64,000 bases of DNA from contig JAGXBC010000004.1 of the NCBI GenBank assembly GCA_018971305.1, forward strand, positions 4,028 to 68,027. Direction: 5' to 3'. The number at the start of each line of letters is the position of its first letter. Positions within the stretch are counted from its first letter, which is position 1. Source of the DNA: Patescibacteria group bacterium (GTDB taxonomy: Bacteria > Patescibacteriota > Minisyncoccia > UBA6257 > 2-01-FULL-56-20). Below the pieces are notes generated by a model. It saw only the letters and a list, made by a program, of their open reading frames with translations. It made no database searches and had not been told where the DNA came from. The position numbers and the translations under genes were made by a program. Positions 2,443-63,712 of this stretch are shown here, one piece after another.

Positions 2443-2541
2443 AATTTTTTATGTTTATTTTATATTAAGGTATAGGATAACATATTTGATAACTTACCCC
2501 ATAATACAGTAAAAAATATCTGTATTGTTATACTTTTATCA

Positions 2542-3819: not shown

Positions 3820-3861
3820 ATGTTGCCGCGATTTCTACATAACTCACAACAATATTAAAAT

Positions 3862-6796: not shown

Positions 6797-6899
6797 TATT
6801 TTATTGCTTTTATTAAGATTCTTTTCGACCTTTCGGACTTAGTATTGTATTTATATATCATAAGGAACGATTTGTGGCAACCCCCCGCGATAAAATCTC

Positions 6900-23022: not shown

Positions 23023-23024
23023 TT

Positions 23025-23744
23025 TTATAAATTATGATTTAAAAGAAAATTATTTACGAAATCAAAATTAGCAACCAGCTGAAGGCTTTGCGTAAACACG
23101 AGCACGCCGAGGACAACGAGAACCGCTCCGAACACTTTTGTTACGTATTCAAGTTTATCGGCATAACGATTAATAAAGGATGATGCCCGGGCGGCAAGAG
23201 CTCCGACAACAAGAAACGGAATCCCTAATCCTATCGCGTAAGACAGCAAAAGATAGAAGGCCTCTCCCGGAGCTGAGGCCGCCAATCCTAAAATCCCACC
23301 AAGAATAGGACCGACGCACGGCGTCCAGCCGGCGGCGAAAGCGAAACCGAACGCGAGCGAAGTAAGATAACGCGAACGAAAACCGAAACCAACGCGCATT
23401 TTATGGTCAAACTCCAAAAAAGAGATTTTGAAAAATCCCATTAAATATAGTCCGAAGAAAATAATTAGCGCCCCGCCGATGCGCGCCAGCCAATCCTGCA
23501 CCGCGTAAGCGGCATGGGAGAGAACGCTATTCAGAAGTACGCCAAGAATGGCGAAGACAACCGAGAACCCGATTACAAAAAATAAACTGTTCAAAAAAAT
23601 AGCGGAGCGAGACGACTTAGAAGCGCCCGATGAAGATTCGCCGGCAAGATAGGCCAAAAATCCTGGGATGATAGGCAAAACACACGGCGACAAAAAAGAA
23701 ACTATTCCTGCCACAAATGCGACGACTATGGGAATATTGAGCAT
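23025..23744 (-). CDS. ccdA: Cytochrome c-type biogenesis protein CcdA (DsbD transmembrane-domain family).
   Basis: Six TM helices with the two conserved Cys in LSPCVLP and GWTPCVGP. Confidence 0.85.
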   Translation of the reverse strand: MLNIPIVVAFVAGIVSFLSPCVLPIIPGFLAYLAGESSSGASKSSRSAIFLNSLFFVIGFSVVFAILGVLLNSVLSHAAYAVQDWLARIGGALIIFFGLYLMGFFKISFLEFDHKMRVGFGFRSRYLTSLAFGFAFAAGWTPCVGPILGGILGLAASAPGEAFYLLLSYAIGLGIPFLVVGALAARASSFINRYADKLEYVTKVFGAVLVVLGVLVFTQSLQLVANFDFVNNFLLNHNL

Positions 23745-23826
23745 TTGATTATTATAAAGAATAATCCGGTATTGGGAAAATCATGAGAATACTAGATAAA
23801 TGTGATGTTACCGAAAACTAGAATAT

Positions 23827-24423
23827 TTATCGGCGGTATTTTGCCGTAATCCTATTATGAATCCTTACTAAAACGAAAATTACTATGCTAACCGCTATCA
23901 CGCCCGCGAAAATACTTAAATATCCGGAAAAATTATTCCAATAATTGCCTGCGGTATAGCCGATAAATAAAGCCGCGGCAGGCTCAATTAAATTTCCCAG
24001 TAAATCATAAACGATAAACGTTCTGAATGGCACGCGCACAAGTCCCGATAAGAGCGAAGCTATGGGACTCAAAGAACCGGCAAAACGCGTTATAAACACA
24101 GTGACTGCAGCATCAACAACCAACTCTTCTTTAAGCCTAAGAAAAAAACGGCTCTCCCCCATGCCCAACCAATGAATAATATCTTCGCCGTATTTCCTCG
24201 TGATGCTATAATCGAACAAATCTCCAAGAGTATTGGCGATGACAGCAACCGTTAAGGATAACCAGATGTTAAAATGCCCCTGGAAAGAAAGTGCGCCTAT
24301 GGCTAAAAGCATTGCGTTTCCAGGCAACGGGAGAATCACTGCAGCGAAAAAAACAAATGCGAAAAGCGCCGCATATCTATAGATAAGGATATAAGAAATG
24401 AATGAGCCGAGTAGCGTCTCCAT
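23827..24423 (-). CDS. DedA / VTT (SNARE-associated) family membrane protein.
   Basis: Membrane-protein topology and length typical of DedA. Confidence 0.7.
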   Translation of the reverse strand: METLLGSFISYILIYRYAALFAFVFFAAVILPLPGNAMLLAIGALSFQGHFNIWLSLTVAVIANTLGDLFDYSITRKYGEDIIHWLGMGESRFFLRLKEELVVDAAVTVFITRFAGSLSPIASLLSGLVRVPFRTFIVYDLLGNLIEPAAALFIGYTAGNYWNNFSGYLSIFAGVIAVSIVIFVLVRIHNRITAKYRR

Positions 24424-24492
24424 CGCGGTTGATTATTTTATCTTTGCAACTATAATATCCGGCATTAGCTCAGCCGCAGAATAATGGCACAC

Positions 24493-24915
24493 TCAAGCAA
24501 TCGGACTATTTTTAATAAGGGTAAGGGCAATAGCAGAAAAAATGAAAATTAAAATATAAAAAATAAGTCCGTAAGCACAGGTTGAAAGCCCGAGAGTCCC
24601 TGTAACGCGCGACTGCATAATCTCTTGGACGGTAAAACTGCCGGAAAAAATTATTCCCAAAAAAGATACGGCGAGATCTGTCTTGATCGCTTTCCTAACA
24701 GATATCTTTCCGAAAAATACCAGCGAGGTGACCATGAACATCAGGACATACATTCCGAAACCGTACCAGCAGGAAGGATATCCCAAAAAATACGGGCAGG
24801 ATTCGTTGAAGGCGCAAGTACCGCTGAAGATTTTTACCCCGCTCAGATAACCGGAGAAAATGAGTCCGGCAGAGATGAGGACAAGAATTTTTTTTGTCAG
24901 GTTTTTTGTGTTCAT
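24493..24915 (-). CDS. Hypothetical membrane protein (4 TM) with conserved Cys in the first loop. Possible thiol-redox membrane component.
   Basis: GTCAFNESCPYFLGYPSC loop Cys residues and four hydrophobic helices. No canonical VKOR CxxC, so family unassigned. Confidence 0.35.
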   Translation of the reverse strand: MNTKNLTKKILVLISAGLIFSGYLSGVKIFSGTCAFNESCPYFLGYPSCWYGFGMYVLMFMVTSLVFFGKISVRKAIKTDLAVSFLGIIFSGSFTVQEIMQSRVTGTLGLSTCAYGLIFYILIFIFSAIALTLIKNSPIA

Positions 24916-33151: not shown

Positions 33152-33685
33152 CTATTGAACGATTATCGTACCCGTATCGCTGGCGCGGAGATGGTTGTGA
33201 TAATTCCAAGTTCCTGACTTATTGAATGTAAATGACCACGAGCCGCCAGGTGGAATGCCGCCGCAAGCGTCAAACGTGTCGCCGGTAGGACTCGCGCAGT
33301 GCTGTTGGAGAGATGTGCCGTCATAAAGAGTGTGTGTGGGATGATTATTGGATGCCGGCCAGAACGAAGATGAGCTCTTATTTTCGAAAACAACCGTGTC
33401 GCCCCGGTTTATTGTCACGGCATTCGGAGAAAAACCACTGTCGGTATAGTCAACCGTAACGGTTATGGTTGCCGTAACAGTAGCTGGAGGAAGAACGGGT
33501 GTAGGATCAACGGTCTTATCCGTAGCAGGGGTATTAGCATCGGCACCGTTCAAATTATTCTGTGATACCGTGCCGTTCTGAACGCCGGGTACAACAGTCG
33601 CACTTGTTCCGGAATTTTTAACAACAACAAAAGTCACCAACACAACTATAACTATCCCACCTAAAATATATAATTTTTTAGACAT
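33152..33685 (-). CDS. Secreted hypothetical protein. Possible cupredoxin-like beta-sandwich domain.
   Basis: N-terminal TM/signal, Thr/Pro-rich linker and a C-terminal TINRGDTVVFENKS...HNH...GTIIV beta-rich domain. No complete blue-copper ligand set. Confidence 0.4.
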   Translation of the reverse strand: MSKKLYILGGIVIVVLVTFVVVKNSGTSATVVPGVQNGTVSQNNLNGADANTPATDKTVDPTPVLPPATVTATITVTVDYTDSGFSPNAVTINRGDTVVFENKSSSSFWPASNNHPTHTLYDGTSLQQHCASPTGDTFDACGGIPPGGSWSFTFNKSGTWNYHNHLRASDTGTIIVQ

Positions 33686-33699
33686 AAAATAATTTTAAT

Positions 33700-34173
33700 T
33701 TAACCAATGAAGTCGCGCAAGCGCGGGTACTTGGCGCAAAACGCCGCATTAGACCGCCAACTGTCTATCCCCCACACGCGCCCTGCTCGTGAAGCGGCAA
33801 AAAACAACATAACAAATCCGTAAATAATATGTTCGTCGACAATTAGCGAATTGGCATCGGGATGGATTATGCCAAGAGGCAAATAATATAAAAGCATCAT
33901 TACCGCTCCGAGCTTGGATGAAAGACGAACGCCTACTCCCAAAATAAGAGAAGTGCCAAGGAGCGTTAACCCCCATTCGTTCACGAAATTCGTTATCGGC
34001 AAAATAGCCGGACTCGCAAGCCATGCATAAAATCCTGACAGAAACTTGGCGTTATTCAAGTATCCAGCAGCTGACCAGTTCGGATTTAAAACTTTCGTTA
34101 TACCGGCGTAAAACATTAACCATCCCAAAGAAACTCGGGCTAGAACCAAAAACAATTTTTGCGATTTGGTCAT
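33700..34173 (-). CDS. DoxX family membrane protein.
   Basis: Four TM helices, about 157 aa. N-terminal LARVSLGWLMFYAGITKV matches DoxX. Confidence 0.7.
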   Translation of the reverse strand: MTKSQKLFLVLARVSLGWLMFYAGITKVLNPNWSAAGYLNNAKFLSGFYAWLASPAILPITNFVNEWGLTLLGTSLILGVGVRLSSKLGAVMMLLYYLPLGIIHPDANSLIVDEHIIYGFVMLFFAASRAGRVWGIDSWRSNAAFCAKYPRLRDFIG

Positions 34174-47112: not shown

Positions 47113-47910
47113 TTATTTAATATTCTTTATATACCTACATTTCGGAAAATTTGAACAACCCCAAAATTGTTTACCGGCATAATCCCCTTGATGCGCCGTT
47201 CGAAGCTCTAGCTTACCACCACATTGAGGACAAATTTTTTCGTCTTGAGTTGCAGCCGGCTGTTGCGCTGGCAAATCCTCCGGCACGGCGTCTTTGCCAT
47301 ACGAAAGCCTATAGTATTTGATCAACTTCAAGCCATCGATAAGTTCTATTCTCGGATTTCCTTCAGCAGCCTTCTCTGCCATCATAGTGAAATTACCCGT
47401 TGTAACAAAAAATCCCTTTTCTGCCGGATTATTAATATTGGTAATCGCCCCAAGAAAATCGCGAACTTCGTGCGGGGTTACTTCTCTGGTTATAAACTTT
47501 TTACACTGAATAAAATATTTTTTGCCGTCCTTGTGTGCGATAACATCTATTCCCCCATCGTTTGCCCCACCAACAACCTCCGCTTTATATCCCAACCCTT
47601 CAAACATATCTGCAACCTCCTTTTCAAACTGCGCCGGCGACATACCTTTTAACATGTATAAAATCTTGTCGTCGCTTAAAAACGCAAGACCCCTGTTGTC
47701 GTGCGCTCTTTTCTTTAGAACAAAATATAAAATTACGCCGACAACCAAAACTACGGTGGCGATAATTCCATATAGAATGGCTTGCTCGCGATGTGTATAT
47801 GCCCAACCAAACAAACCAAGAATAAAAAGACCAATAATGCCGCTGGCAATGTCAACAAGCTCTTCTTTTGGAGATTTTCGCCTATAGTAATAACGCCTCC
47901 TTCTTGCCAT
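47113..47910 (-). CDS. Membrane-anchored restriction endonuclease-like (Mrr_cat) protein with a C-terminal topoisomerase-type C4 zinc ribbon.
   Basis: N-terminal 2 TM. Mrr catalytic-core-like GGANDGGIDVIA...QCKKF. C-terminal CPQCGG...WGCSNFPKCRY. Confidence 0.7.
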   Translation of the reverse strand: MARRRRYYYRRKSPKEELVDIASGIIGLFILGLFGWAYTHREQAILYGIIATVVLVVGVILYFVLKKRAHDNRGLAFLSDDKILYMLKGMSPAQFEKEVADMFEGLGYKAEVVGGANDGGIDVIAHKDGKKYFIQCKKFITREVTPHEVRDFLGAITNINNPAEKGFFVTTGNFTMMAEKAAEGNPRIELIDGLKLIKYYRLSYGKDAVPEDLPAQQPAATQDEKICPQCGGKLELRTAHQGDYAGKQFWGCSNFPKCRYIKNIK

Positions 47911-53361: not shown

Positions 53362-55482
53362 TTATAACTTTTCCCTCCGCAGCAAAACGGCGTTCACGGC
53401 AACGATAACCGTACTCAAAGACATGAACACGGCCGCGAGCGCGGGCTCAAGCAAGATTCCGCGGGAGGCAAGAACTCCGGCGGCCAAAGGCAGGGCAACA
53501 ACGTTATAGCCGGTTGCCCAAAATAAATTCTGTACCATTTTGTTGTATGTAAGTCGGGAGAGTTTGATGATTTTCAGAATATCGCGCGGGTCGTTCTTCA
53601 CTAAAATTATTCCGGCGGATTCTATCGCAATGTTAGTTCCCGCGCCGATGGCAATTCCCAAATCTGCCTGAGTAAGTGCCGGAGCGTCGTTAATACCATC
53701 GCCAACCATAGCGACCTTCAATCCCCGCTTCTGCAATTCTTTTACTTTGGATGCTTTTTCGCCCGGCAGAACTTTTGCGAAATATTCGTCTATACCAAGT
53801 TTTTCGGCAACCCAGCTGGCTACATCTTCGGAATCGCCGGTTATCATCGCCGTTCTTACACCGGCTTTCTTTAGTTTCACTATCGCTTCGCGTGATTCTT
53901 CGCGGATTATATCAGCCAAAGCAATGGCTCCGAGTAATACTCCGCCGGAGACGATATAAATTATTGTCTTTCCTTCTTTAGACAATACGGCGAGCCGAGA
54001 TTTCATTTTATCGGCAACCGCGCCGCTCAATATAGCTTCACCACCAACTAAAACATCCTGGCCATCAACCAATCCTCTAACACCTTTGCCGGGAATGCGC
54101 TCAAAATTTTTTACTTCAGCAATTTTGAGATCGCGCTTTTTCGCTTCCGCAACTATCGCCCGCGAAACGAAGTGCTCTGAATTTGAATCAACCGCAGCGG
54201 CCAGCCGCAAAACTTCCCCATCGTTCTCGGCAATAATATCTGTTACTCCATATTCGCCTTTAGTCAGGGTTCCCGTCTTATCAAAAAGAACAATATTTAT
54301 TTTCCTTGCTCGCTCCAACGAGGCTCGCTGCCTGATAAGAAATCCATTACGAGCCGCCATCGTAGTGGAGATCGCGGCAACAAGTGGTATGGCGAGTCCC
54401 AAGGCGTGCGGGCAAGCTATCACGAGAACAGCGACTAGCCGCGTTAAAGCGAAAGAGATTCCGGCCGAAGCAAGGAGCCAGGAAACCAAAGTTATAATTC
54501 CCGACGCCACGGCGATTATGGTGAGATAGAATGCCGCCTTGTCCGACAAAATCTGCAATCGCGATTTGGAGGCCTGCGCTTCTTTTATAAGCCGCATCAC
54601 TCCGGCCAAAAAAGTTTTCTCGCCGATTTTTGCCACGCGAATTTTTAGCGAGCCGTCACCGTTCGTCGTTCCGGCTATTACCTCGGCGCCCGTATTCTTT
54701 ATAACCGGCTTTGATTCGCCGGTGATAATTGCTTCGTTTACGTCCGACTTGCCGTCCGCCACAATCCCGTCCGCGGGAATTTTCCCTCCGGGCCGTACGA
54801 ATACCAAATCACCCTCTTTTAATTCCATGAGCGGAACGGTTTCACTCTTATCGCCGCGAATCACCTCGGCTACGTCCGGTAAAAGTTTGGATAATTCCTT
54901 AAGAGCTCCCTGGGCACCCTGGACAGATTTCATTTCTATCCAATGTCCCAAAAGCATCACAGCGATAAGCGTTGTCAGCTCCAAAAAAAGAGTCTGCGTG
55001 CCACCCGCCAAAACCGATATGGCGCTGTAAACGTAGGCGGTCGTAATGGCCAAGGCGATGAGCGTCATCATCCCTGGCAATTTGGCCTTAAGTTCACGCC
55101 AGGCACTTGCGATAAAAACCCAGCCGCAATAGAAAAATACTATTGAGCCGATCAATAACTGGAGATAGCGCGAACCGGGAAATTGCGGCGCTTGCCAGTT
55201 GAAAAACGTCTGCGGTAAATCCGAATAAACCAGAACCGGAACGGTTAAAACCAAACTCACCAAGAATTTTTTTAGAAAATCCTGGGTATGATGCCCGGCA
55301 TGTTTGTTGAAATCATCTTTGCTTCCTTCATGTTCGGAATGCTTGCTGTGTTCTATACTGCGTGCCTCGTGTTTTACGGCCACGAGCGCCATCCCGCAAT
55401 CCGGACACATACCGGGAATTTCCTGTTTAATCTCCGGATGCATAGGGCAGGTATAAATTTTGTTAACTAATTCCTGGTTCAT
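53362..55482 (-). CDS. copB: Copper-translocating P1B-type ATPase (CopB-like, CPH motif) with an N-terminal CxxC...CxxC metal-binding domain and a His-rich stretch.
   Basis: YTCPMHPE...CPDCGM, His-rich HEARSIEHSKHSEHEG..HAGHH, TGES, CPH, DKTGTLT, GDGINDAPAL. Confidence 0.9.
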   Translation of the reverse strand: MNQELVNKIYTCPMHPEIKQEIPGMCPDCGMALVAVKHEARSIEHSKHSEHEGSKDDFNKHAGHHTQDFLKKFLVSLVLTVPVLVYSDLPQTFFNWQAPQFPGSRYLQLLIGSIVFFYCGWVFIASAWRELKAKLPGMMTLIALAITTAYVYSAISVLAGGTQTLFLELTTLIAVMLLGHWIEMKSVQGAQGALKELSKLLPDVAEVIRGDKSETVPLMELKEGDLVFVRPGGKIPADGIVADGKSDVNEAIITGESKPVIKNTGAEVIAGTTNGDGSLKIRVAKIGEKTFLAGVMRLIKEAQASKSRLQILSDKAAFYLTIIAVASGIITLVSWLLASAGISFALTRLVAVLVIACPHALGLAIPLVAAISTTMAARNGFLIRQRASLERARKINIVLFDKTGTLTKGEYGVTDIIAENDGEVLRLAAAVDSNSEHFVSRAIVAEAKKRDLKIAEVKNFERIPGKGVRGLVDGQDVLVGGEAILSGAVADKMKSRLAVLSKEGKTIIYIVSGGVLLGAIALADIIREESREAIVKLKKAGVRTAMITGDSEDVASWVAEKLGIDEYFAKVLPGEKASKVKELQKRGLKVAMVGDGINDAPALTQADLGIAIGAGTNIAIESAGIILVKNDPRDILKIIKLSRLTYNKMVQNLFWATGYNVVALPLAAGVLASRGILLEPALAAVFMSLSTVIVAVNAVLLRREKL

Positions 55483-55654
55483 TGTTGTTTAGAAAAATTA
55501 TTTTCAATTGCATGGCTTATAACCTCAAGATTGCAACTTTTGTGCTCCCGGCACCACGCCTCGCATTTTTCCGCCCATTCTTTATCTTTATACGCGGAAC
55601 CGCATTCGGAGCAGATAAACGTTTGCGGCGATGTCTGTTTATTGTTTTGCTTCA
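55479..55654 (-). CDS. Small Cys-rich ORF (59 aa) not in the ORF track. Its stop overlaps the copB ATG (ATGA). Candidate metal-binding chaperone or regulator.
   Basis: Hand translation: MKQNNKQTSPQTFICSECGSAYKDKEWAEKCEAWCREHKSCNLEVISHAIENNFSKQQ. Open for 59 codons. ATGA overlap with copB. Confidence 0.4.
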
Positions 55655-56133
55655 TAGCTTATGACGATCTGGTCCTTGTCGCGCAAGATGGTGTTTTCGT
55701 AGGTATCCACCTGTGATCCGTTGACCATCACTTTAATTATATGACTATCATCAATGGTATTGTCGAGAATCTGGTTTTGGTTGAAGGTTTTATCCCACAC
55801 CGCGAAGAAGTCGGCGAGGGTGAAATCCCTTGCTTCCGGCGATTCTACGTGAAGCGTGCCGCTCGTGTCATGCGTGTGAATCGGATGCATACACGCGAGG
55901 GTGATGCCGATATTCGCGGGGATGTCCTGCTGCTGGCCATTGATGAGGATTTGGAGATGCGGATGGATGTGGAATGTCGTAAACATATCCGTCGTACAGC
56001 TTAGCGCGAGTTGCCGGTTCGTTTGGTTGGAGACGGAATGGTTGCCCCACCAAAAAAGCCCAGCGACGAGCGCAATCGTGATTCCAGTAATCCACCACCC
56101 CGTGTATGATTTTTTGTAAGAATATTTGCTCAT
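55639..56133 (-). CDS. His-rich exported protein (TM anchor) upstream of copB. Candidate periplasmic copper-binding protein. Track ORF to 56211; Met27 start preferred.
   Basis: FHIHPHLQ...CMHPIHTHDTSGTLHVE His/Cys cluster. N-terminal TM. Confidence 0.45.
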   Translation of the reverse strand: MSKYSYKKSYTGWWITGITIALVAGLFWWGNHSVSNQTNRQLALSCTTDMFTTFHIHPHLQILINGQQQDIPANIGITLACMHPIHTHDTSGTLHVESPEARDFTLADFFAVWDKTFNQNQILDNTIDDSHIIKVMVNGSQVDTYENTILRDKDQIVISYEAKQ

Positions 56134-56143
56134 GTTTTTAGTG

Positions 56144-56827
56144 TTAGCCGCCGCAGATGTCCGAAGCATCCCAGAAAGCGGCAATTTGCTGGGCGTTGAA
56201 TATTCCATCAATGATCATCTTTTTCGCAATGCCCTCATCCACGAAGTAATGCCAGCACTTGCAGCAACACGGCTTTTCTTTTGAGATCGCATATGCCTGA
56301 TTGTAGATTGCCTGCTGTGCCGGAGTAAGCTTCGTGGCATTGTCGTAATCGATCCATTGTTTTGCCATCGCGATTGGCGTGTGCATCGGATCAAGCGGGA
56401 TGTTCGGCATGCTCTTATACGCTTGGAGTTTTTGGAGGTTCGCGTGGCGCTCGACCGTATCCATAAGCGCCGAACAGCATTGGCCACCCAAGTATTTCCC
56501 AGTGGTGTTTGGGAGCGTTCCTCCCGCAGCAACGCAGCTTCCCTCGTAAGTTTGAGAGCCCGAAGCAAGTGCGTCGAGATTCGCACCACAGGTGATGATT
56601 TGGGAATCGAGATCAAGAAGTTCCGGATTAACGTCTTTTGTAAGATTCTGGCTTTGCTTCAGAAAATCATTCTTTCCCGCTTGCGTAGGAATTTGAGTGA
56701 GTTCTGTCGCAAGTTTTGCGGCGAGAGTGGTATCCGTCCCCGCGTTATTTTTTGAGAAAGAAAAATACAAAGCGCCGCCTACGAGCAGGAGTGCCACCGC
56801 GATTGAGATTTTTACATTTTTGTTCAT
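56144..56827 (-). CDS. Secreted Cys-rich hypothetical protein. Track ORF to 56950; likely start at Met42 with a signal peptide.
   Basis: Signal peptide MNKNVKISIAVALLLVGG. Cys clusters GGQCCSAL and PCCCKCWHY. Confidence 0.45.
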   Translation of the reverse strand: MNKNVKISIAVALLLVGGALYFSFSKNNAGTDTTLAAKLATELTQIPTQAGKNDFLKQSQNLTKDVNPELLDLDSQIITCGANLDALASGSQTYEGSCVAAGGTLPNTTGKYLGGQCCSALMDTVERHANLQKLQAYKSMPNIPLDPMHTPIAMAKQWIDYDNATKLTPAQQAIYNQAYAISKEKPCCCKCWHYFVDEGIAKKMIIDGIFNAQQIAAFWDASDICGG

Positions 56828-56966
56828 CCCGATTAGAGATAGGAAACGCAGGCGTTTCCGTATCTGATTATGTCTTTGCATAAGATATTCAATTAATTTC
56901 TTTTTATGTTTCCCGCTAGGATACCGTTGGGCATCTCTAACGGGATTCATGGTTTTATTTTTTTAT

Positions 56967-57533
56967 TTAAGGCAGGCAAACCGGCGACGCCGAGATTCTT
57001 TTCGCCACAAAGTAAATTGAAGATGCGAGAAGAATTACGCTCAGCAAGCCGAATTCGCCGCCCTTAAGTGGCAGGAGCGCTATTGCTCCTCCCGCGCCGA
57101 CCAATGAGAGAATGCTTGTTGCGAGAAACGATCCGCATGCGGCGCAGCCGACGCCGAACATTCCGCTAATCACGCCACCTACGCTTGCAGTCATTTCTCT
57201 CTGCCCCAGCGCGAGGTTTCTCTTCGCGAGGTAGACGATCATCGCAAGATCGATGCCAAAGAGAATCGCTATCGCGATAGTGTATGAAGCCGAGAATACG
57301 CTGAAGTTTGTCGTGATGCTCTCAAAAAGTCCCGCGAGAAGTTGCGCTTTTATGCCAAGAGGCACGCTCCAATTTCCAAGGGTGTTTGCGATCAAGGAGA
57401 AATTTGGCAGCCATACCACAAAGGTAAAAGCTGCGAGTCCTCCAACGAGCGCGATCACGACGTAAGAGAATTTTCCGAACACTTCTCGGAGAGCGCGGAT
57501 CAGCATTTTATTTCGTCGCAAGCGCGGCATCAA
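56967..57533 (-). CDS. Hypothetical integral membrane protein (about 5 TM) with GCAACG in a TM segment.
   Basis: Hydrophobicity. GVGCAACGSFL. Overlaps the dsbA 3' end, so likely an operon. Confidence 0.45.
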   Translation of the reverse strand: MMPRLRRNKMLIRALREVFGKFSYVVIALVGGLAAFTFVVWLPNFSLIANTLGNWSVPLGIKAQLLAGLFESITTNFSVFSASYTIAIAILFGIDLAMIVYLAKRNLALGQREMTASVGGVISGMFGVGCAACGSFLATSILSLVGAGGAIALLPLKGGEFGLLSVILLASSIYFVAKRISASPVCLP

Positions 57534-58266
57534 TCGCCGCCTTGAAGGCAGAGTATGGCTGTGCGCCTTGCACCATCTGGCCGTTCACGTAACTCGTCGG
57601 GGTGGAATTCACGCCGATTGCCTGGGCCGCCGCCGTGTCTTTTTTCACCTGATCGTCATATTTGTTGCTGTCGATGCAGGAAGTGAATGCGTTCATGTCG
57701 AGCCCAACATTTCCCGCGAGTTTCAGGAACTCGTTTCTACTGAAGAATCCGTCGTTTTCACCGTTCGCGGCATCTTTCACCTTTGCACCGTAGAGCGCAT
57801 CGTGGTATTCCCAGAACTTCGACTGGTATTTCGCGCATTCCGCTGCCGCTCCGGCGTTCGTCGATTCAGCGCCCAAGAACTGGAAATTCCGATAGACCAT
57901 TTTCACTTTGCCGGTTTTAATATAATCGGCGCGAAGCGACGGTTCTACTTGGCTGAAAAACCTGCCGCAAAACGGACATTGATAATCGCCGTACTCGACG
58001 AACGTTACGGGCGCGTTTACATCACCCAAGACAGCATCGCTACCGTTGATCTTGAGCGCTTCTGCAAGATTGGCGCTGGGCGCGGCGGTTTGGGTGTTTC
58101 CGGCCGCCTGCGGAATTTTAGTGTCCGATTTCTTTCCTACAGAATAGACAACTGCTCCGGCTATGAGCACTCCGGCAATGAGAATGGAGGCGGGCATGAG
58201 AAAATTATTCGATGTTTGTGTTTTTTCTATTTGCGGAATTTCTTCCGGTTTATTTTCATGACGCAT
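57508..58266 (-). CDS. dsbA: DsbA family thiol:disulfide interchange protein, membrane-anchored.
   Basis: N-terminal TM. Thioredoxin fold FVEYGDYQCPFCGRF (CPFC). Confidence 0.8.
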   Translation of the reverse strand: MRHENKPEEIPQIEKTQTSNNFLMPASILIAGVLIAGAVVYSVGKKSDTKIPQAAGNTQTAAPSANLAEALKINGSDAVLGDVNAPVTFVEYGDYQCPFCGRFFSQVEPSLRADYIKTGKVKMVYRNFQFLGAESTNAGAAAECAKYQSKFWEYHDALYGAKVKDAANGENDGFFSRNEFLKLAGNVGLDMNAFTSCIDSNKYDDQVKKDTAAAQAIGVNSTPTSYVNGQMVQGAQPYSAFKAAIDAALATK

Positions 58267-58354
58267 AGTTTTATAAAATTATTTTATTATCAGATTAACA
58301 AAAAACACACGCCCCGTGGTTTGCGCGTGTTTGTGGGCGCAAATCGGGCGTTAT

Positions 58355-58765
58355 TTAAACGTTCAAGGAGTAATCGTAAATTTTAGCGTGGAGAATGCCC
58401 CTGCTCAGCGCGAAGAGAATGGGATTAAAAATCCGGTTAATAAAGATCTGATTTTTGTTGTACAAGAAAACTTTTTCCTCACGGTGATCATCCCTATCAA
58501 GTTTTCTGGAAACATTAGAAAACAAGAAGGTGAATAACAAAAGCAGTGGGATGACATTTGGTATAACGGCAGCAGAAAGCAATCCCCATGCACTAAGATG
58601 TTCCATAATATTCATGCGACAAATCGAAGCGGTGCCGTTCATTAATGGGCAAGAAGCCATATTGCCATGACTATCCATATTCATCGAAACAGTCAAACCG
58701 AATACTGCCATAGCTGTAAACAGAATGAAGATTACTAAAGTAAGCTTTGTATTCAAAATAGGCAT
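58355..58765 (-). CDS. 2-TM membrane protein with a Met/His-rich loop carrying a Cys pair. Paralog of 61289..61690.
   Basis: MDSHGNMASCPLMNGTASICRMNIMEH between TM1 and TM2. Same architecture as 61289..61690. Confidence 0.5.
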   Translation of the reverse strand: MPILNTKLTLVIFILFTAMAVFGLTVSMNMDSHGNMASCPLMNGTASICRMNIMEHLSAWGLLSAAVIPNVIPLLLLFTFLFSNVSRKLDRDDHREEKVFLYNKNQIFINRIFNPILFALSRGILHAKIYDYSLNV

Positions 58766-58809
58766 AGTTCTATTTTAGCACCGAAGATAAAGTTTCTCAA
58801 TTTCTCTAT

Positions 58810-59214
58810 TCACCAGATCTTCACGCGCTCCTGCGGCTCGCGCCATAACTTGTCTCCCGGCTTACAGTCGCTCACTTGCGCCAATTTTTCTAAGCTTTGT
58901 TCACCAACAAGCTTGGTGCCATCGACCAAAATCCACGTCGGAGTGCCCTCAACTCCGGCATCAGTGCATTTCTGCGGCTCGTCCGCGCATTCCACATAGG
59001 GAACGTACTTGAACGAATCACCGAATTCGGCTTTTTGGCTTTGACAGTGCGAACACCAATATGCTCCGTACATCGTCACATTTTTCTGTGCCAGACATTT
59101 GGCGAAGTCGTCCAGATTCTTAGTTGCTCCTTCGCGCGGATAGAATTCTAAGAACGCCGCTACCACAATTATCGCGACAACAATAATTACGATTATTTTA
59201 TGATTTTTTTTCAT
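58810..59214 (-). CDS. Membrane-anchored thioredoxin-like protein of the type fused to bacterial VKOR (WCxHC). Track ORF to 59364; start at Met51. The C-terminal 17 aa match the M13 peptidase C-terminus.
   Basis: N-terminal TM. TMYGAYWCSHCQSQKAEFG...GTPTW (VKOR-associated Trx-like signature). Tail KPGDKLWREPQERVKIW. Confidence 0.7.
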   Translation of the reverse strand: MKKNHKIIVIIVVAIIVVAAFLEFYPREGATKNLDDFAKCLAQKNVTMYGAYWCSHCQSQKAEFGDSFKYVPYVECADEPQKCTDAGVEGTPTWILVDGTKLVGEQSLEKLAQVSDCKPGDKLWREPQERVKIW

Positions 59215-59403
59215 TGATTTTATTCTTATCACCCCTCTCCCTCTACAGCGACTGGCTTGTTTCGTAAGGCAGTTCCCGCAAGCGATAAAAGCTTGGTGTC
59301 CTCCGCCAATTGGCGGAGGACTTTTATTGCCGAGGGTGCAGGCGGTCGTATGCCGCTGGAGCATACGAACCGCCGGTGCCGAGCGAAATATGCCGGTCGC
59401 AAC

Positions 59404-59898
59404 TTATTCATCGCAACAATCAACTAATTTATCCACGATGTCGTTAAGCGACCAAGGCTTATCTTCGGCCGCTATTTCTTTCAGACCATTCGCGGTTATC
59501 AACTTTAAACGCAAGGCCCAAAAGAGAGAATAGATCTTGTAGCCGTAATCAAACGTTTCCTTGGCTTCTTTTGTTTTGCCGTCGGAATGAAGCTTTGTAC
59601 CCACCTCAATGAGCCGCATGGTCGTAGCCAAGAGGTGCTTGGAAACGCACCATGTCTCCCCTTCGTGCTTCGGTATCATCCGGCCAAGCAGATTTTTCCG
59701 AACTTCCCGTACCTCCTTAAGCAAGTCGAAATATTCCGGCTTGCCGGTTTTTTCGGCGCTAAAGTAGAAATGCTCTTCCAGGCTTATCAGGTTCATAACG
59801 GCCACGCTTAAATCTTCTTCTGTAGACAGATCAACAGTGCCCGACTTTTTCATCTCTTCCGCTTTTTTTATCAATTCCTGAAATTTTTTTTCGTCCAT
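59404..59898 (-). CDS. Hypothetical cytoplasmic protein (164 aa) ending CCDE.
   Basis: ORF. No motif. Confidence 0.45.
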   Translation of the reverse strand: MDEKKFQELIKKAEEMKKSGTVDLSTEEDLSVAVMNLISLEEHFYFSAEKTGKPEYFDLLKEVREVRKNLLGRMIPKHEGETWCVSKHLLATTMRLIEVGTKLHSDGKTKEAKETFDYGYKIYSLFWALRLKLITANGLKEIAAEDKPWSLNDIVDKLVDCCDE

Positions 59899-59950
59899 GT
59901 TTTTATAAAGCGAAAATGATAAGGCCTAAAACGACCATTGCCACTCCGCT

Positions 59951-60688
59951 CTAAAAACGCATATTTCCCGTCTCCGACCTTTTCCAATCCTGAACTTTTT
60001 TTAGCAATCCCTGCTCACTCGCGACGAGAAGAATAATCGCCAGCGGCAAAATGAATATCATATTGTAGAGAAACAGATAGCCGAGCCCCGGCAGAAAAGT
60101 CTGCTGGTCATGCAATAATCCGAGAACCATTAGGTACGGCCCGCCCGTACAGGGAAATTCGCAGAGCCCCACAAGGCCACCCAAAAGAAATGCGGTTGGC
60201 ACGGAAGCTTTATTCATAAACTCAGCCATCTTCGCGTGGGCCGCGTGCGGTATCCGTAATTTAATCGGGAAAGCCGGGAAAAATTCGTTGATGAGATTGA
60301 TCCCTCCGAGCGCCATAAGCAAGATAGCTCCAACTTTTGCCATAAAGTGGGGCGTATTGAAGAGATGCAGAGCTTGAAGTATGCCAAGTCCGATAGCGAT
60401 GTATACTAGAAATATTCCAAGGACATACGCCCCGCCTATCTTCAAAATATCTCGTCTTGATTTTCCCAGACTGAACAGAAACGCGATAGTAAGAACGAGG
60501 ATGGAGAATGCACAAGGATTAATGCTGTCGGCCAAAGCAGCGACGAGAAGCACGGGCAGAAACCACTTGCCACTTTGGGAAATCTTCCAGAGAAAGTTCG
60601 CGCTCTGCTGCGAATTGAAGAATACGGCTAAGCCGATAACGGCAACAGCCACGACCACAAGCCAAAACAATCTTTTGTTTGATGTCAT
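59951..60688 (-). CDS. ccdA: CcdA/DsbD-transmembrane-domain family protein (second copy).
   Basis: SINPCAF and LCEFPCTGGPYL conserved Cys motifs. Six TM. Confidence 0.85.
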   Translation of the reverse strand: MTSNKRLFWLVVVAVAVIGLAVFFNSQQSANFLWKISQSGKWFLPVLLVAALADSINPCAFSILVLTIAFLFSLGKSRRDILKIGGAYVLGIFLVYIAIGLGILQALHLFNTPHFMAKVGAILLMALGGINLINEFFPAFPIKLRIPHAAHAKMAEFMNKASVPTAFLLGGLVGLCEFPCTGGPYLMVLGLLHDQQTFLPGLGYLFLYNMIFILPLAIILLVASEQGLLKKVQDWKRSETGNMRF

Positions 60689-60689
60689 G

Positions 60690-61193
60690 TTATGGAGTAA
60701 CTAACGCCTTGAAAGCGACTTGGAATTGACCTTTGTCGGTGTAAACCGTTACTTGCCTTTCTATGGCACCGATACCGGATGGACCATGGGCGGCAGGATC
60801 AAAAATAGTCCGCAAATTCATTTCTCCTCCCACGGGAACAACTTCGTTTATGGACGGAGCAAAACCCATTCCAGCCATTCCGAATGGACCGAATTCCTTG
60901 CCGCCAAAATTCAAGACCGCCTCTGTACACATGCAAGAAGTGTCTGCTCTGTTCACGGTTACAACGGAATCTCCGCTATTCGTGAAGCTGAAATCGTGTT
61001 CCACCTTGCCGTTCGCCATGGAAATAGTCCCGAAATCAAATTCCTGAACCGCCTGGCCGAAAACGGCGCTGGTTTCTCCGAGAAGAGACACCTTGCCGCT
61101 CACCGCAGGCGCATGGCTGCCCCAGAACAAAAGCAATCCGGCAACTACGGCAATTATCGTAACTAAAATAAAAGTTTTTTTGTTTTTAGACAT
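60690..61193 (-). CDS. DUF1573 domain protein, membrane-anchored.
   Basis: N-terminal TM. FDFGTI..G...H.F.F.N.G...VTV......SCMCT resembles the DUF1573 consensus. Start abuts the ccdA stop. Confidence 0.65.
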   Translation of the reverse strand: MSKNKKTFILVTIIAVVAGLLLFWGSHAPAVSGKVSLLGETSAVFGQAVQEFDFGTISMANGKVEHDFSFTNSGDSVVTVNRADTSCMCTEAVLNFGGKEFGPFGMAGMGFAPSINEVVPVGGEMNLRTIFDPAAHGPSGIGAIERQVTVYTDKGQFQVAFKALVTP

Positions 61194-61288
61194 AGTTTAT
61201 GTTTTTTACGAAACCAAAAACAACCCCTTGAGGGTTGTTATCGGCGGCGAAATGCAGCCTGTCGAGTCAGGACTGCAAAAACACCGCC

Positions 61289-61690
61289 TTAGGCGAACGA
61301 GGGGCTATTTTCGTGAAAAGAAAGCCAGCGGATGAGCTGAAGTTTCACCGGAGGAATAAAGTCATAGAATGAAACCCCGGTCAGATGCGGCTTAGTTATA
61401 GGTAAGATTCCTCCGACGACACTATTGAGATCCAGAACAAAATATATTAGTAAAGACAACGCCACGATCATGGACCAGGAAACCAAAACTGCCAAAGAAA
61501 AATTCTTCAGGGCGTTGAAGTGGAAATTTATAAAATCGATCACGCTTGCTCCCAAAGGACACATTGCACCTTCCGAAGTGGAAGCAATACAGCCCATATG
61601 ATTGCTATTCATAAAAGCCACGCCGATAAATCCCAAAACGGCGATACTTATAAAACTTATAGCAATGTATATGGCAAGCGCTTTGTTCAT
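61289..61690 (-). CDS. 2-TM membrane protein with a Met/His-rich Cys-pair loop. Paralog of 58355..58765.
   Basis: NSNHMGCIASTSEGAMCPLGASV loop between TM1 and TM2. Confidence 0.5.
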   Translation of the reverse strand: MNKALAIYIAISFISIAVLGFIGVAFMNSNHMGCIASTSEGAMCPLGASVIDFINFHFNALKNFSLAVLVSWSMIVALSLLIYFVLDLNSVVGGILPITKPHLTGVSFYDFIPPVKLQLIRWLSFHENSPSFA

Positions 61691-61747: not shown

Positions 61748-63712
61748 TCACCAAATCTTTACCCGTTCCTCAGGATCCCGCCAAAGCTTATCCCCGGGAT
61801 TACAATCAAAAGCGTCGTAAAATTCCTGCATATTGGACATCGGTCCGTTCACGCGAAATTCCGAAGGTGAATGAGGGTTGGTCTGCAAGTGCAAGCGGGT
61901 AAGTTCGTCACGGACGTTCCTTTGCTCTGTTATGGCATAACCTATAAAAAATCTCTGCTCGGGAGAAAATCCGTCAATATTCTCTTCCACGGGAGTTTCG
62001 GCGAGTTTTAATTTCAAAGCGTCATAGGCGATAAGTAGTCCGCCGAGATCGGCGATATTTTCTCCCAAAGTCAGCTTGCCGTTAACGTGCATCCCCGGAA
62101 TCGGTTCGTATTCATCAAACTGCCCCGCCAGTTTAGCAGCCTCGGCTTCAAATTTATCTTTGTCTTCTTTCGTCCACCACTCGTTCAGATTTCCACGATT
62201 GTCAAAACGAGAACCTTGGTCGTCAAAGCCGTGCGTCAATTCATGTCCGATAACGCTGCCGATGCCACCGAAATTCACGGCATCGTCGGCGTTCGGGTCA
62301 AAAAACGGAGGCTGGAGAATTGCAGCCGGGAAAACAATATCGTTCAAAGACGCCTGATAATAGGCATTGACCATCTGCGGCGGCATGAACCATTCGTTGC
62401 GATTCACCGGACCACCGACCTCTTTGATTTTTCGGTCAAATTCAAAAACATCCGCGCGTATGACATTCCCCGCAAAAGAATCTGCGTTGATAGAAAGCGC
62501 AGAGTAATCTTTCCAGACATCGGGGTAGCCCAGCTTTTTGGAAACCGCCTGGAGTTTTTCCAGCGCTTTCTTTTTGGTTTTTTCGCTCATCCAGTCAAGT
62601 TTTTCTATGCGCACCGCATAGGCGGAGGCGAGATGCCCAACAAGATCCTTTATTTTCTTTTTCGCGTCCTCGTTGAAGTGGCGCTCCACATATAATTGCC
62701 CGACAAGCTCATCCAAAGCCGAGCTTGTGGCATTAAGCGCGCGCCGCCACAACGGTTTCATCTCGGTCTGCCCGGCGAACGTGCGTCCGTAAAATTCAAA
62801 GTGCCGGCGTTCCATATCTTCACCAAGATAAGAGTCCGTGCCGTTAAGAACGCGCCAACGAAGATATAACTTCAGGTCCTCCAGCGGCGTCTCAGCTAAA
62901 ATGGAATTAATTTCCAAGAGGAACTTCGGCTGACCGAGAAGAAGATATTCTGCCTTTGGATTATTTATTGACGGGAAATATGATGATAGCGGTATTTTCG
63001 GAGCCAATTGAGAGAATTCTTCTAGGGTTACCTTATTATAATTTTTTTCAACATCGCGGAGCTCAACAGGAGTGGAAGACGCCTTCGCCAGAAGCGTTTC
63101 CATATTCATTATCACGGAACATATGTCTTCACCGCTGGATGCCATATTTGCCAACGCTAAAATATCTTTCATGTAAGACAGATAATCCGTGCGAATCTTT
63201 AAGCTATTTTCATCATTATTCAAATAATAATCCCTGTCGGGCAGGCCCAATCCCCCTTGCCAAAAATGCAACGCCATCATTTCGCTATCGCGCTCATCCT
63301 GATCAATAAAAGGAATCCAAAAAGCGTTAATTCCTCGGCGATGAAGAAACCCGATTGCGCCGACAATGTCCTCGCGCTTTTTTATACCATCTATACCCTG
63401 GAAAAGTTCTGTAAGCGGAGACGCACCGGCGCGATTGCGGCTTTCAACGTCCGTAGCGCTCAGATAAAAATCGCGGATTTTCTGCTCTGCGCTTCCGGCA
63501 ACCAAATCTTTTTTCGCCACGACTTCTTCAAAAATATTTTTTAACTGCTGCTCAACGTTAAAACGCAGAACGTCGAACGACCCCCAGCTCGCCTCGTCCG
63601 GCGGTATCGGATTATTTTTCATCCAGCCGCCGTTAACGTAACGGAAAAAATCATCCGTAGGTTTTACGGATTTGTCGAAATTATTTTTGTCTATAGCTGA
63701 TGATAACGGCAT
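61748..63712 (-). CDS. pepO: M13 family metallopeptidase (PepO / neprilysin-like endopeptidase).
   Basis: HELTHGFDDQG (HExxH), ENIADLGG (ENxADxGG), NAYY. C-terminal ...GDKLWRDPEERVKIW. Confidence 0.9.
   Translation of the reverse strand: MPLSSAIDKNNFDKSVKPTDDFFRYVNGGWMKNNPIPPDEASWGSFDVLRFNVEQQLKNIFEEVVAKKDLVAGSAEQKIRDFYLSATDVESRNRAGASPLTELFQGIDGIKKREDIVGAIGFLHRRGINAFWIPFIDQDERDSEMMALHFWQGGLGLPDRDYYLNNDENSLKIRTDYLSYMKDILALANMASSGEDICSVIMNMETLLAKASSTPVELRDVEKNYNKVTLEEFSQLAPKIPLSSYFPSINNPKAEYLLLGQPKFLLEINSILAETPLEDLKLYLRWRVLNGTDSYLGEDMERRHFEFYGRTFAGQTEMKPLWRRALNATSSALDELVGQLYVERHFNEDAKKKIKDLVGHLASAYAVRIEKLDWMSEKTKKKALEKLQAVSKKLGYPDVWKDYSALSINADSFAGNVIRADVFEFDRKIKEVGGPVNRNEWFMPPQMVNAYYQASLNDIVFPAAILQPPFFDPNADDAVNFGGIGSVIGHELTHGFDDQGSRFDNRGNLNEWWTKEDKDKFEAEAAKLAGQFDEYEPIPGMHVNGKLTLGENIADLGGLLIAYDALKLKLAETPVEENIDGFSPEQRFFIGYAITEQRNVRDELTRLHLQTNPHSPSEFRVNGPMSNMQEFYDAFDCNPGDKLWRDPEERVKIW

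Follow-up and report, generated by a model that had tools for sequence, protein, structure and literature searches.

A copper and thiol-redox island of a Patescibacteria genome: unannotated protein families between a predicted CopB-type pump and a DsbA-like protein

Gene content of the island

The island considered here occupies positions 53362-61690 of a 64,000-nucleotide stretch of DNA (the window) from a Patescibacteria group bacterium (GenBank assembly GCA_018971305.1, contig JAGXBC010000004.1), and, according to the list of open reading frames (ORFs) and their translations, it consists of 12 closely packed ORFs, all on the minus strand (Table 1). From the lower to the higher coordinates, these encode a copper ATPase; s58, a small protein with a CxxC...CxxxC arrangement; two exported proteins, HisRich and CysRich; TM5, a membrane protein with a GCAACG motif; a membrane-anchored DsbA-like protein (DsbA); TM2A, a protein with two transmembrane (TM) helices; a membrane-anchored thioredoxin (Trx); CCDE, a cytoplasmic protein named after its C-terminus; a CcdA-type membrane protein; a DUF1573 protein; and TM2B, again with two TM helices. 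An initial annotation had listed thirteen genes, one of them a small ORF of 59 aa, and had read them as a copper and extracytoplasmic thiol-redox island. The genes and motifs that it named are present and all co-oriented, but the genes number 12 and the small ORF has 58 aa. It is very probable that the copper/thiol-redox island is real and composed of conserved parts, and its DsbA appears, as judged from gene order, to have its fixed membrane partner in TM5, not in the 2-TM proteins.

Bacteria of the candidate phyla radiation (CPR), which account for a large share of bacterial diversity, have no respiratory chains and yet are enriched in DsbA-like proteins, and the locus bears on the question of how these proteins are recharged and how the cells cope with copper. 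CPR genomes often carry VKOR, which adjoins DsbA-like genes in 88 of the 750 genomes having both and is their third commonest neighbour (PMC6744442), and Patescibacteria are reported to lack electron-transport chains (PMC7507113). New oxidases of DsbA are still emerging and gaps remain, with about 20% of species lacking every known one; MauE illustrates that a protein with a single Cys motif can replace DsbB (bioRxiv 10.64898/2026.03.05.709764).

TM2A, TM5, and CysRich correspond to the NCBI hypothetical proteins KGJ89_03095, KGJ89_03085, and KGJ89_03080, respectively (100% identity, 95-100% query coverage), and several of the island ORFs are shortened by likely start codons further in. Searches of the island proteins against Pfam and NCBIfam gave no family for TM2A, TM2B, TM5, CysRich, HisRich, s58, or CCDE, and Pfam gave none for 36 members of the TM2 family and 41 of the TM5 family. 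Profile searches of all PDB sequences with TM5, TM2, HisRich, and CysRich returned nothing significant, no specific fold match was obtained for TM5, and a literature search for this CPR cassette found no description of it. The expectation that the island holds several uncharacterised conserved families, the 2-TM proteins among them, was thus borne out.

The island is likely divided into several transcription units because strong hairpins split it, and a single 13-gene operon was rejected for the same reason. A sigma-70-like site just upstream of TM2A is probably the start of the core operon, a match that is limited by the fact that promoter-like sites are no commoner in the region than in shuffled sequences. 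Between the CCDE and Trx genes lies a perfect palindrome of 24 nt with a 10-bp stem (GTCCTCCGCCAATTGGCGGAGGAC). A search of 52-64 kb against Rfam gave no match.

Table 1. Genes and sequence features of the island, with positions in the window
Feature	Position	Strand	Remarks
Predicted CopB-type ATPase	53362-55482	-	706 aa
s58, CxxC...CxxxC ORF	55479-55655	-	58 aa
HisRich, exported, membrane-anchored	55639-56211	-	Probable start 56133
CysRich, exported, CC and CCCKC	56144-56950	-	Probable start 56827, 227 aa
TM5, GCAACG membrane protein	56967-57533	-	Probable start 57506, 179 aa
DsbA/MdbA-like protein, CPFC, membrane-anchored	57508-58266	-	PF13462, PF01323
Hairpin and U6 3' of the TM2A gene, possible attenuator or terminator	58290-58354	-	-20 kcal/mol, z -1.7 (weak)
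TM2A, 2-TM protein, HGNMASC-x9-C	58355-58765	-	Translation, alignment
Sigma-70-like promoter TTGAGA-17-TG-TAAAAT, just upstream of TM2A	58772-58800	-	Consensus match only
Trx, thioredoxin, WCSHC, membrane-anchored	58810-59364	-	True start 59214, 134 aa; match to 3KP8/3KP9
Palindrome in the CCDE-Trx interval, terminator or operator	59298-59321		-22.4 kcal/mol, z -5.0
CCDE protein, cytoplasmic, all-helical	59404-59898	-	Alignment with 4 homologues
Second CcdA/DsbD-type membrane protein, NPC and FPCTGGP motifs	59951-60688	-	PF02683, PF11139
DUF1573 exported Ig-like protein, CMC motif	60690-61193	-	PF07610
Two strong hairpins 3' of the TM2B gene, the second followed by a U-run, terminator-like	61205-61290	-	-39.2 kcal/mol, z -4.9
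TM2B, 2-TM protein, NHMGC-x10-CP...H	61289-61690	-	Distant TM2A relative

DsbA and its membrane partner TM5

DsbA matches PF13462 (E 6e-38) and PF01323 (2e-21), carries an N-terminal TM anchor in its translation, and has a CPFC motif and a Thr-cisPro loop that are conserved across 84 sequences, by which it is predicted to be an extracytoplasmic oxidoreductase of the DsbA/MdbA type. Relatives of TM5 were confirmed at 208 places in a GTDB collection of one genome per species, from which 80 loci, nearly all of them in CPR, were kept; a strict count covers these 80, and most other neighbourhood counts given here were made on 88 loci scored with local profiles. The DsbA gene ends 1-4 nt before the TM5 gene, or overlaps it, in 82 of the 88 loci, and the strict count has it immediately 5' of TM5, in the same orientation, in at least 68 of 80, the gap having a median of 2 nt. 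Because this fixed adjacency holds in CPR and also in a haloarchaeon, TM5 is regarded as the predicted membrane partner of DsbA.

The haloarchaeal evidence comes from seven plasmids, on which the TM5 homologues show 30-36% full-length identity and have retained all three cysteines. On the plasmid of Halorussus halophilus, a DsbA-like gene overlaps the start of TM5 by 4 nt, and an adjacent protein of the "MoaD/ThiS family" carries a HisRich-like C-terminal domain (hhalign 91.7%), with no copper genes found near the pair; in Haladaptatus, two plasmids have DsbA-like genes within about 1-4 kb of TM5. Since the pair is present in haloarchaea without copper genes nearby, DsbA-TM5 would be an old unit that is independent of copper.

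At least 423 homologues of TM5 are known at the 90% cluster level, all of about 180-200 aa, and the invariant positions include C130 and C133 in G-x-G-C-A-A-C-G-S, C186, and the motifs WLPN, TNF, and PL.GGE. Positive charges (mean K+R) are concentrated in the N-terminus (2.3), loop 2 (2.1), and the C-terminal tail (1.8), while loop 3, which contains PL.GGE, is net negative and residues 114-153 are uncharged. In addition, there are TM5-like paralogues in which a tail of the form RRDLKK...C-x4-C is followed by one more TM helix and then by a large Cys-bearing domain. From the charge distribution and the fusions, TM5 is likely to have four TM helices and both ends in the cytoplasm, so that C186 would be cytoplasmic and the CAAC pair would sit in the inner half of the membrane. 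Of the earlier description of a 5-TM protein with GCAACG, the motif therefore stands, and the helix number probably has to be reduced by one. It should be noted that the tail of the paralogues fits a cytoplasmic location only if the Cys-bearing domain is outside, a placement assumed from its resemblance to CysRich at the level of motifs. Homology between CysRich and this domain was considered and found unsupported (hhalign 5%), the two having only motifs in common.

Several known families were examined as possible homes of TM5. A likeness to GMxCxxC, the motif of HMA domains, is apparent in the segment G[VIM]GCAACGS and shows in a weak match to RAN1 (E 0.44); a comparison with a verified MerC sequence aligned 27 columns around GCAAC only (hhalign E 9e-4, probability 23%); and a TM5-like fusion faintly matches a MerT/CopZ fusion family (E 0.071). 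Given that these similarities concern the motif and not the whole protein, and that Pfam MerC and MerT profiles do not match, TM5 was rejected as a MerC/MerT homologue. It was likewise rejected as a homologue of CcdA/DsbD, having no PF02683 match and a probability of 0.2% against rhizobial CcdA in hhalign. Neither DsbB (PF02600) nor VKOR (PF07884) profiles match TM5, TM2A, or TM2B, while a genuine DsbB from one of the CPR loci scores 6.5e-36 in a similar search; the architecture of DsbB, with two extracytoplasmic Cys pairs on a four-helix bundle, is not found either, and TM5 resembles DsbB and VKOR in neither fold nor profile. The genuine DsbB belongs to one of five species (loci L050, L055, L062, L064, and L076) in which a BdbC-type DsbB and a second DsbA follow TM5 directly, in the order TM2A-DsbA-TM5-DsbB-DsbA2 (for example, DsbB at L055:10521-11003). 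That these cassettes have a DsbB of their own speaks against TM5 as a mere substitute for it, and a role as a DsbB/VKOR analogue seems unlikely. In nine loci, a further family is present, one member of which has a faint SurA_N-domain match, and which may thus represent a PrsA/SurA-like foldase gene.

Conservation and copper context in CPR

The core order TM2A-DsbA-TM5-CysRich-HisRich-s58-ATPase recurs across at least 80 CPR species-level genomes. The closest relative, with 69% identity in TM2A, keeps all seven genes in this order and is without the part comprising Trx, CCDE, CcdA, DUF1573, and TM2B. A copper-type ATPase is found within 10 kb in 48/88 loci and, by the strict count, in 19 of the 28 loci flanked on each side by 8 kb or more, HisRich in 39/88, CysRich in 29/88, and s58 in 18/88. 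Other neighbours include a CsoR/RicR-type repressor (30/88; NCBIfam RicR, 3.5e-23), multicopper oxidase (24/88), a cupredoxin-like protein (10/88), CopM/DUF305 (8/88; 4.6e-20), and an HMA protein (7/88). Such copper-related neighbours, together with the conserved order, mark the locus as a copper-homeostasis locus typical of Parcubacteria-like CPR. The description of a copper and extracytoplasmic thiol-redox island, with its CopB-type pump, DsbA, and copper neighbours, is therefore genuine, and the neighbourhood is conserved in related genomes, as had been proposed for a check.

Two further observations concern copper islands of this kind. In 13 of them (L012, L013, L016, L025, L028-L030, L039, L046, L058, L060, L070, and L087), there is a membrane protein without annotation, about 154 aa long, in which SCCAHY comes after a G-rich segment (for example, L039:13489-13953), often beside an exported GHHREG protein of about 152 aa; neither occurs in the present window. 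The window itself has, at 33152-34173 on the minus strand, a cupredoxin-like exported protein that adjoins a DoxX membrane protein and is a homologue (phmmer 1.5e-16) of proteins that 10 related genomes carry in their copper islands.

The ATPase matches the Pfam families E1-E2_ATPase (4e-51), Hydrolase (HAD; 3e-36), and HMBD (3e-10). Its translation has an N-terminal HMBD (CPMHP...CPDCG) and a His-rich stretch (HEARSIEHSKHSEHEG...HAGHH) and contains ACPHALG, which places CPH in TM4, as well as GYN and, near the end, MSLST. E1-E2 and HAD domains, CPH in TM4, YN in the fifth TM helix, MSxST in the sixth, and a His-rich N-terminus are all features of P1B-3 ATPases, and from the HMBD, the His-rich stretch, CPH, and MSLST the protein is identified as a CopB-type (P1B-3) P-type pump, the specificity of which, Cu(I) export, is a prediction.

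The stop codon of s58 overlaps the start of the ATPase gene by 4 nt. The conserved motif of s58, C.EC-x13-C..WC.EH.SCN (Cys5His), is accompanied in its homologues by weak matches to DUF7128, and a tblastn search against plasmids gave no match. The distribution of s58 is restricted to loci with CPH/HMBD pumps, where it occurs in 9 of 19, compared with none of the 13 that have CPC/HMA-type pumps (hypergeometric p ~0.003). In fusions, s58 is always N-terminal and ahead of a membrane anchor, and this position indicates that it is cytoplasmic. Since s58 is found only with CPH/HMBD pumps and is translationally coupled to the pump here, it is a candidate metal-binding adaptor or chaperone of CopB-type pumps on the cytoplasmic side. 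Pumps of this type are not known to have a chaperone.

Natural fusions link these undescribed parts to one another. s58 is joined to a TM5-like protein in L057 and L010 and, in L058, to a TM5-like protein followed by one TM helix and the large Cys-bearing domain, the same domain that follows a TM5-like protein and a TM helix in L020 and L037. Moreover, s58 precedes a TM helix and DsbA in L019 and a TM helix and HisRich in L027 and L030, and DsbA is fused to HisRich in five distinct loci (L005/L006, which form one cassette, L033, L069, L081, and L082).

The 2-TM proteins and the exported proteins

The extracytoplasmic loop of TM2A reads M..CP.M.G..S.C.M...EH...W, and its cytoplasmic C-terminus reads GILH.KIY. 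C39, C49, and H56 are invariant, and M28, M36, M51, W60, and the C-terminal GI(LH.KIY) are nearly so, in a family that comprises 1472 representatives when clustered at 50%. In 51 of the 88 loci, the gene immediately 5' of DsbA is TM2A, and a 2-TM gene is present in about 60% of loci; a tblastn search of plasmids with TM2A gave no match. Within the TM2 family, the Cx9C arrangement is often exchanged for a vicinal CC, some members have lost the Cys pair, and the pair is often preceded by Met-rich runs (e.g., MDMSAMDMGMM) and followed by (E)H..W. Because of the Met-rich runs, the CC or Cx9C pair, and the conserved His and Trp, the TM2 proteins are probably extracytoplasmic Cu(I) binders rather than participants in a disulfide relay.

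The two 2-TM proteins had been described as paralogues. They are indeed related, but not closely: BLASTP between TM2A and TM2B gives an E value of 0.024, the TM2A profile misses TM2B, and the two are joined by iterative search through intermediates, so that TM2B was rejected as a close TM2A paralogue and is regarded as a distant relative. In a few genomes (L012, L013, L016, and L044), TM2B is again found together with CCDE and CcdA.

HisRich has six invariant residues in the alignment, H81, H83, H112, H114, H121, and E123, and a C-terminus that is beta-grasp-like. On plasmids of Streptomyces and Mycolicibacterium, its homologues come directly after metal regulators and P-type ATPases for heavy metals, and in Acidovorax they stand beside DUF305. 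A separate case is the plasmid NZ_CP015439 of Anoxybacillus amylolyticus (L093, record 2406-4442), in which the C-terminal domain of SkfF is HisRich-like (32% identity, E 1e-18); the His5Glu domain is there borne by a permease-like membrane protein of a sporulation-killing-factor operon, the skf system being one that makes a disulfide-containing peptide. CysRich has eight invariant cysteines (C..C, GQCC, PCCCKCW, DICGG) and at least 356 homologues at about 60% identity.

The accessory segment and the VKOR question

The remaining genes, from Trx to TM2B, make up the accessory segment. Trx matches the thioredoxin domain of Synechococcus VKOR (PDB 3KP8/3KP9, E 8e-20); its neighbours are CCDE, CcdA, and TM2A, and no VKOR is adjacent or fused to it. 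The last 19 aa of Trx (58810-58869; DCKPGDKLWREPQERVKIW), which gave a match to the PepO C-terminus, copy the C-terminus of the neighbouring M13/PepO peptidase (61748-61807; DCNPGDKLWRDPEERVKIW). In the DNA alignment, the codon differences are mostly synonymous, with 11 of the 20 codons differing in this way only. This duplication was missed by a direct-repeat finder, being found at the protein level and confirmed by alignment. Given that Trx homologues elsewhere are without the M13 tail, the copy indicates that an insertion at the 3' end of the peptidase gene brought in the segment from Trx to TM2B; at least, it has the look of such an insertion.

CCDE has a conserved ETWC and a C-terminal CC(D/K)E, and its four homologues are encoded beside CcdA or TM2B genes. 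The CcdA of the island scores 29.5 bits with PF02683, above the cut-off of 27.1, and 35.5 bits with PF11139. The DUF1573 protein matches PF07610 (E 4e-12; 46.4 bits, with a cut-off of 26.1) and, weakly, the OS_HP2 (seleno)protein family. The adjacency of DUF1573 and CcdA, which had been noted as undescribed, is present here, but the association also recurs in CPR loci L009 and L074 and, on plasmid pSinB, within a single cluster.

Another group of extracytoplasmic redox genes lies at 21252-24915 on the minus strand of the window, with MsrA, a TlpA-like protein with a Thioredoxin_10 domain, the first CcdA, a DedA/VTT protein, and a VKOR-like ORF. The last of these (24493-24915, 140 aa) scores 17.1 bits against a cut-off of 27.5 and has no PDB match; of the loop Cys pair and the TM4 CxxC that characterise VKOR, the former is present as C-x5-C, and CAYG stands where the latter is expected. 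In view of this degenerate ORF, the window is without a canonical VKOR or DsbB. The earlier statement that Trx has no VKOR partner in the window thus holds in part, for a canonical VKOR, the sub-threshold ORF leaving it doubtful beyond that.

Elsewhere in the window are a type IV pilus-like cluster (6314-12269, minus strand), with prepilin-type N-termini (GFTLIEI) and ATPase-like and platform-like ORFs as read from the ORF list only, and a fusion of an Mrr-type restriction endonuclease with a zinc ribbon of the topoisomerase type (47113-47910, minus strand).

Homologues on rhizobial copper plasmids

CysRich homologues (hhalign 99.4%, E 8.5e-22), with GSCC, PCCC.CW, and GCGG kept, are encoded by three copper-resistance plasmids of rhizobia, namely Ensifer adhaerens pD, Sinorhizobium sp. 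M14 pSinB, and S. meliloti HM006 accessoryA, where they always follow DsbA(CPYC)-CcdA. The companions of these triads include multicopper oxidase, CopG/DUF411, SCO, TlpA, DsbE, DUF1573, and CusA. The order is thus DsbA-X-CysRich in both settings, with X being CcdA in rhizobia and TM5 in CPR, and the exchange of the two looks like a non-orthologous displacement. It is mainly for this equivalence of slots that a role like that of CcdA, DsbD, or ScsB is ascribed to TM5.

A copper-stress thiol-protection reading and its alternatives

The explanation that we favour, with a probability put at about 0.45, is that the island protects thiols in the cell envelope during copper stress. In a first layer, the conserved core operon (about 53.4-58.8 kb) would couple the CopB pump to a relay in which Cys, His, and Met sites reach across the membrane. 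CopB, with s58 as its presumed cytoplasmic Cys5His adaptor, would expel Cu(I); TM5 would hold the GCAACG pair within a four-helix membrane domain and its C-terminal Cys in the cytoplasm; and DsbA, CysRich (Cys8), and HisRich (His5Glu) would be anchored on the outer face, where TM2A would expose its Met/Cys/His/Trp loop, and where TM2A, HisRich, and CysRich may bind surface copper. DsbA, TM5, and CysRich might form a thiol relay across the membrane, like DsbA-CcdA-CysRich and ScsC/ScsB, through which TM5 would pass reducing equivalents, or possibly Cu(I), between the cytoplasm and the exported thiol proteins. In this way, the export of copper by CopB would be accompanied by the upkeep or repair of surface cysteines and by the sequestration of Cu(I). 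In a second layer, the accessory segment (58.8-61.7 kb; Trx, CCDE, CcdA, DUF1573, and TM2B) would provide a separate, less conserved reducing module based on CcdA. TM5 would accordingly be a conduit of the CcdA/DsbD kind without being homologous to either, and not an analogue of DsbB/VKOR, a suggestion that is by analogy and tentative.

Several points weigh against this explanation. TM5 has only three invariant cysteines, and its CxxC lies within one helix, unlike the pair of CcdA, which has one Cys in each of two pseudo-symmetric helices (PCxxP). The topology derives from the positive-inside rule and from fusions in which the likeness of the outer domain to CysRich is confined to motifs. The dipeptide of CPFC is that of the strongly oxidising DsbL and therefore would favour an oxidase as the partner. 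With a CcdA already in the island and another in the window, a further conduit for reductant looks redundant. The likeness of GCAACG to HMA and MerC motifs makes the relay of metal as possible as the relay of electrons. Finally, a phmmer search of the 64-kb window found no CsoR-like ORF.

One alternative is that TM5 is a new oxidase of the DsbB/VKOR/MauE type, which reoxidises a DsbA dedicated to the folding of the Cys-rich copper proteins encoded downstream, just as DsbL/DsbI serve their own operon. The strict adjacency of DsbA and TM5 in CPR, seen also in the haloarchaeon, would be expected of such a pair, and so would the invariant CxxC with a third Cys in TM5, a canonical DsbA/MdbA-type partner with CPFC, and genes for Cys-rich exported proteins downstream. 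There is also room for another oxidase, in that VKOR stands beside DsbA-like genes of CPR in so few genomes (PMC6744442) and MauE offers a precedent with a single Cys motif, about 20% of species still having no known oxidase (bioRxiv 10.64898/2026.03.05.709764). We consider this alternative unlikely, given the genuine DsbB and second DsbA right after TM5 in five species, the charges and fusions that put the C-terminal Cys in the cytoplasm, the missing fold or profile similarity to DsbB or VKOR, and the presence of CcdA, which conducts reductant, in the same slot in rhizobia. Furthermore, Patescibacteria without electron-transport chains, as they are described in PMC7507113, would presumably have no quinones to accept the electrons.

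In a second alternative, TM5 is a conduit for metal, and Cu(I) is handed among the exported Cys proteins DsbA (CPFC), CysRich, and TM2, the CAAC pair in the membrane, the tail Cys, and s58/CopB, in parallel with the mercury route from MerP through MerT/MerC to MerA. The similarities of the GCAACG segment to HMA domains, of its helix to MerC, and of the TM5-like fusion to the MerT/CopZ family all point this way, and s58, which looks metal-binding rather than redox-active, has TM5-like proteins as fusion partners and is coupled to CopB; ScsC-type DsbA proteins, moreover, are reported to bind Cu(I) tightly (PMC8900818). However, every one of these similarities is at the level of motifs and below significance, the import of Cu(I) prior to its export would be futile in a cell with one membrane, and haloarchaeal DsbA-TM5 pairs are found without metal genes nearby, which together leave this alternative doubtful.

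Beyond these, it is conceivable, at rather low odds, that TM5, s58, and CysRich form an unrecognised transmembrane thiol/Cu(I) relay that serves as the partner of DsbA in CPR and haloarchaea and that, with the His5Glu domain, yields a copper-dependent and quinone-independent formation of disulfides fed by CopB. If so, a further solution for the membrane partner of DsbA would stand beside DsbB/VKOR/MauE and DsbD/CcdA. A related version, which we find improbable, has disulfide formation without quinones depend on copper directly, such that CopB loads the His5Glu domain, DsbA is reoxidised with Cu(II) or O2, and multicopper oxidase recycles Cu(I). Such a route would account for the fusions of DsbA with HisRich in five distinct loci, for the five invariant His and the Glu of HisRich, for the HisRich-like domain on the permease-like SkfF of Anoxybacillus, and for the multicopper oxidase in 24/88 loci, and it would suit cells without an electron-transport chain, as reported for Patescibacteria (PMC7507113). 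On the other hand, HisRich homologues elsewhere accompany heavy-metal pumps and regulators, which fits a metal-binding acceptor, the control by CsoR indicates a stress response and not housekeeping, and TM5, CysRich, and s58 are left without a role.

The proposal of the initial annotation, that the two 2-TM proteins with Met/His/Cys loops are the missing DsbB/VKOR analogue, could draw on the position of TM2A directly upstream of DsbA, on its invariant extracytoplasmic Cys pair, and on its lack of a known family, but it is highly improbable now that TM5 turns out to be fixed beside DsbA, while TM2A is absent from about 40% of DsbA-TM5 loci, the Cys pair is exchanged for CC in many members and lost in some, Cu(I) binding is what the Met-rich runs, His, and Trp suggest, two TM helices with no second Cys pair are all that it offers, and TM2B lies in a separate transcription unit behind strong hairpins.

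Comparison with known systems

Copper-linked systems with Dsb-like proteins are already known, including Scs, the copper-induced dsbDEG operon, and CopG. The kind of system is thus familiar, and it is the parts that are new: five conserved families without annotation, which include a membrane protein coupled to DsbA and common to CPR and haloarchaea and a candidate partner of CopB. What the locus supplies is a parts list of these families, with their invariant residues and fusions, that links a copper pump to DsbA.

The Scs system resembles the present locus in that an exported protein of the DsbA fold is genetically linked with copper tolerance and with a membrane protein that carries cysteines, and the logic common to both may be the provision of reducing power, or the sequestration of Cu(I), for the envelope under copper stress. 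ScsC-type proteins are reported to bind Cu(I) tightly (PMC8900818), and a ScsC-like DsbA in a copper context is found here as well; no homologue of DsbD or of ScsB, the DsbD-like reductant conduit, is encoded beside it, and the two systems resemble each other in function only. TM5 has no homology to ScsB, DsbD, or CcdA and is far smaller, with about 180 aa, probably four TM helices, and three cysteines, and the setting is that of monoderm-like CPR cells with CysRich, HisRich, s58, and TM2 as extra partners. With DsbB, VKOR, and MauE, TM5 shares the character of a small polytopic membrane protein that has a Cys motif and is encoded beside DsbA. In contrast to them, it lacks sequence or fold similarity, has three cysteines instead of two pairs, of which the one in the tail is probably cytoplasmic, and co-occurs with a real DsbB in one operon. 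MerT/MerC with MerP offers a Cys pair within a TM helix, a Cys in the cytoplasmic tail, and an exported partner with a Cys pair, and CAAC is common to MerC and TM5; the differences lie in the number and order of helices, in the lack of a sink of the MerA type, and in the context, which is copper and not mercury.

The arrangement of s58 and the pump recalls CopZ-CopA, in which a small Cys-rich cytoplasmic protein is likewise translationally coupled to a P1B ATPase. However, s58 is a Cys5His mini-domain and not an HMA (ferredoxin-like) domain, occurs only with CopB-type pumps, and is often fused to the membrane anchors of exported proteins.

A likeness in gene order is offered by the uncharacterised rhizobial triads, which have in common with the CPR loci the succession of DsbA, a membrane protein with cysteines, and a CysRich homologue, as well as multicopper oxidase and DUF1573 (pSinB). 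The membrane protein is CcdA there and TM5 here, and the motif of DsbA is CPYC there and CPFC here. SCO, CopG/DUF411, and DsbE of the rhizobial clusters are found neither in this window nor in the CPR loci, TlpA is not found in the CPR loci, and, conversely, no 2-TM, s58, or HisRich genes were seen in the rhizobial clusters. As TM5 occurs in cultivable haloarchaea and the Cys8 protein in cultivable rhizobia, both can be tested genetically outside CPR.

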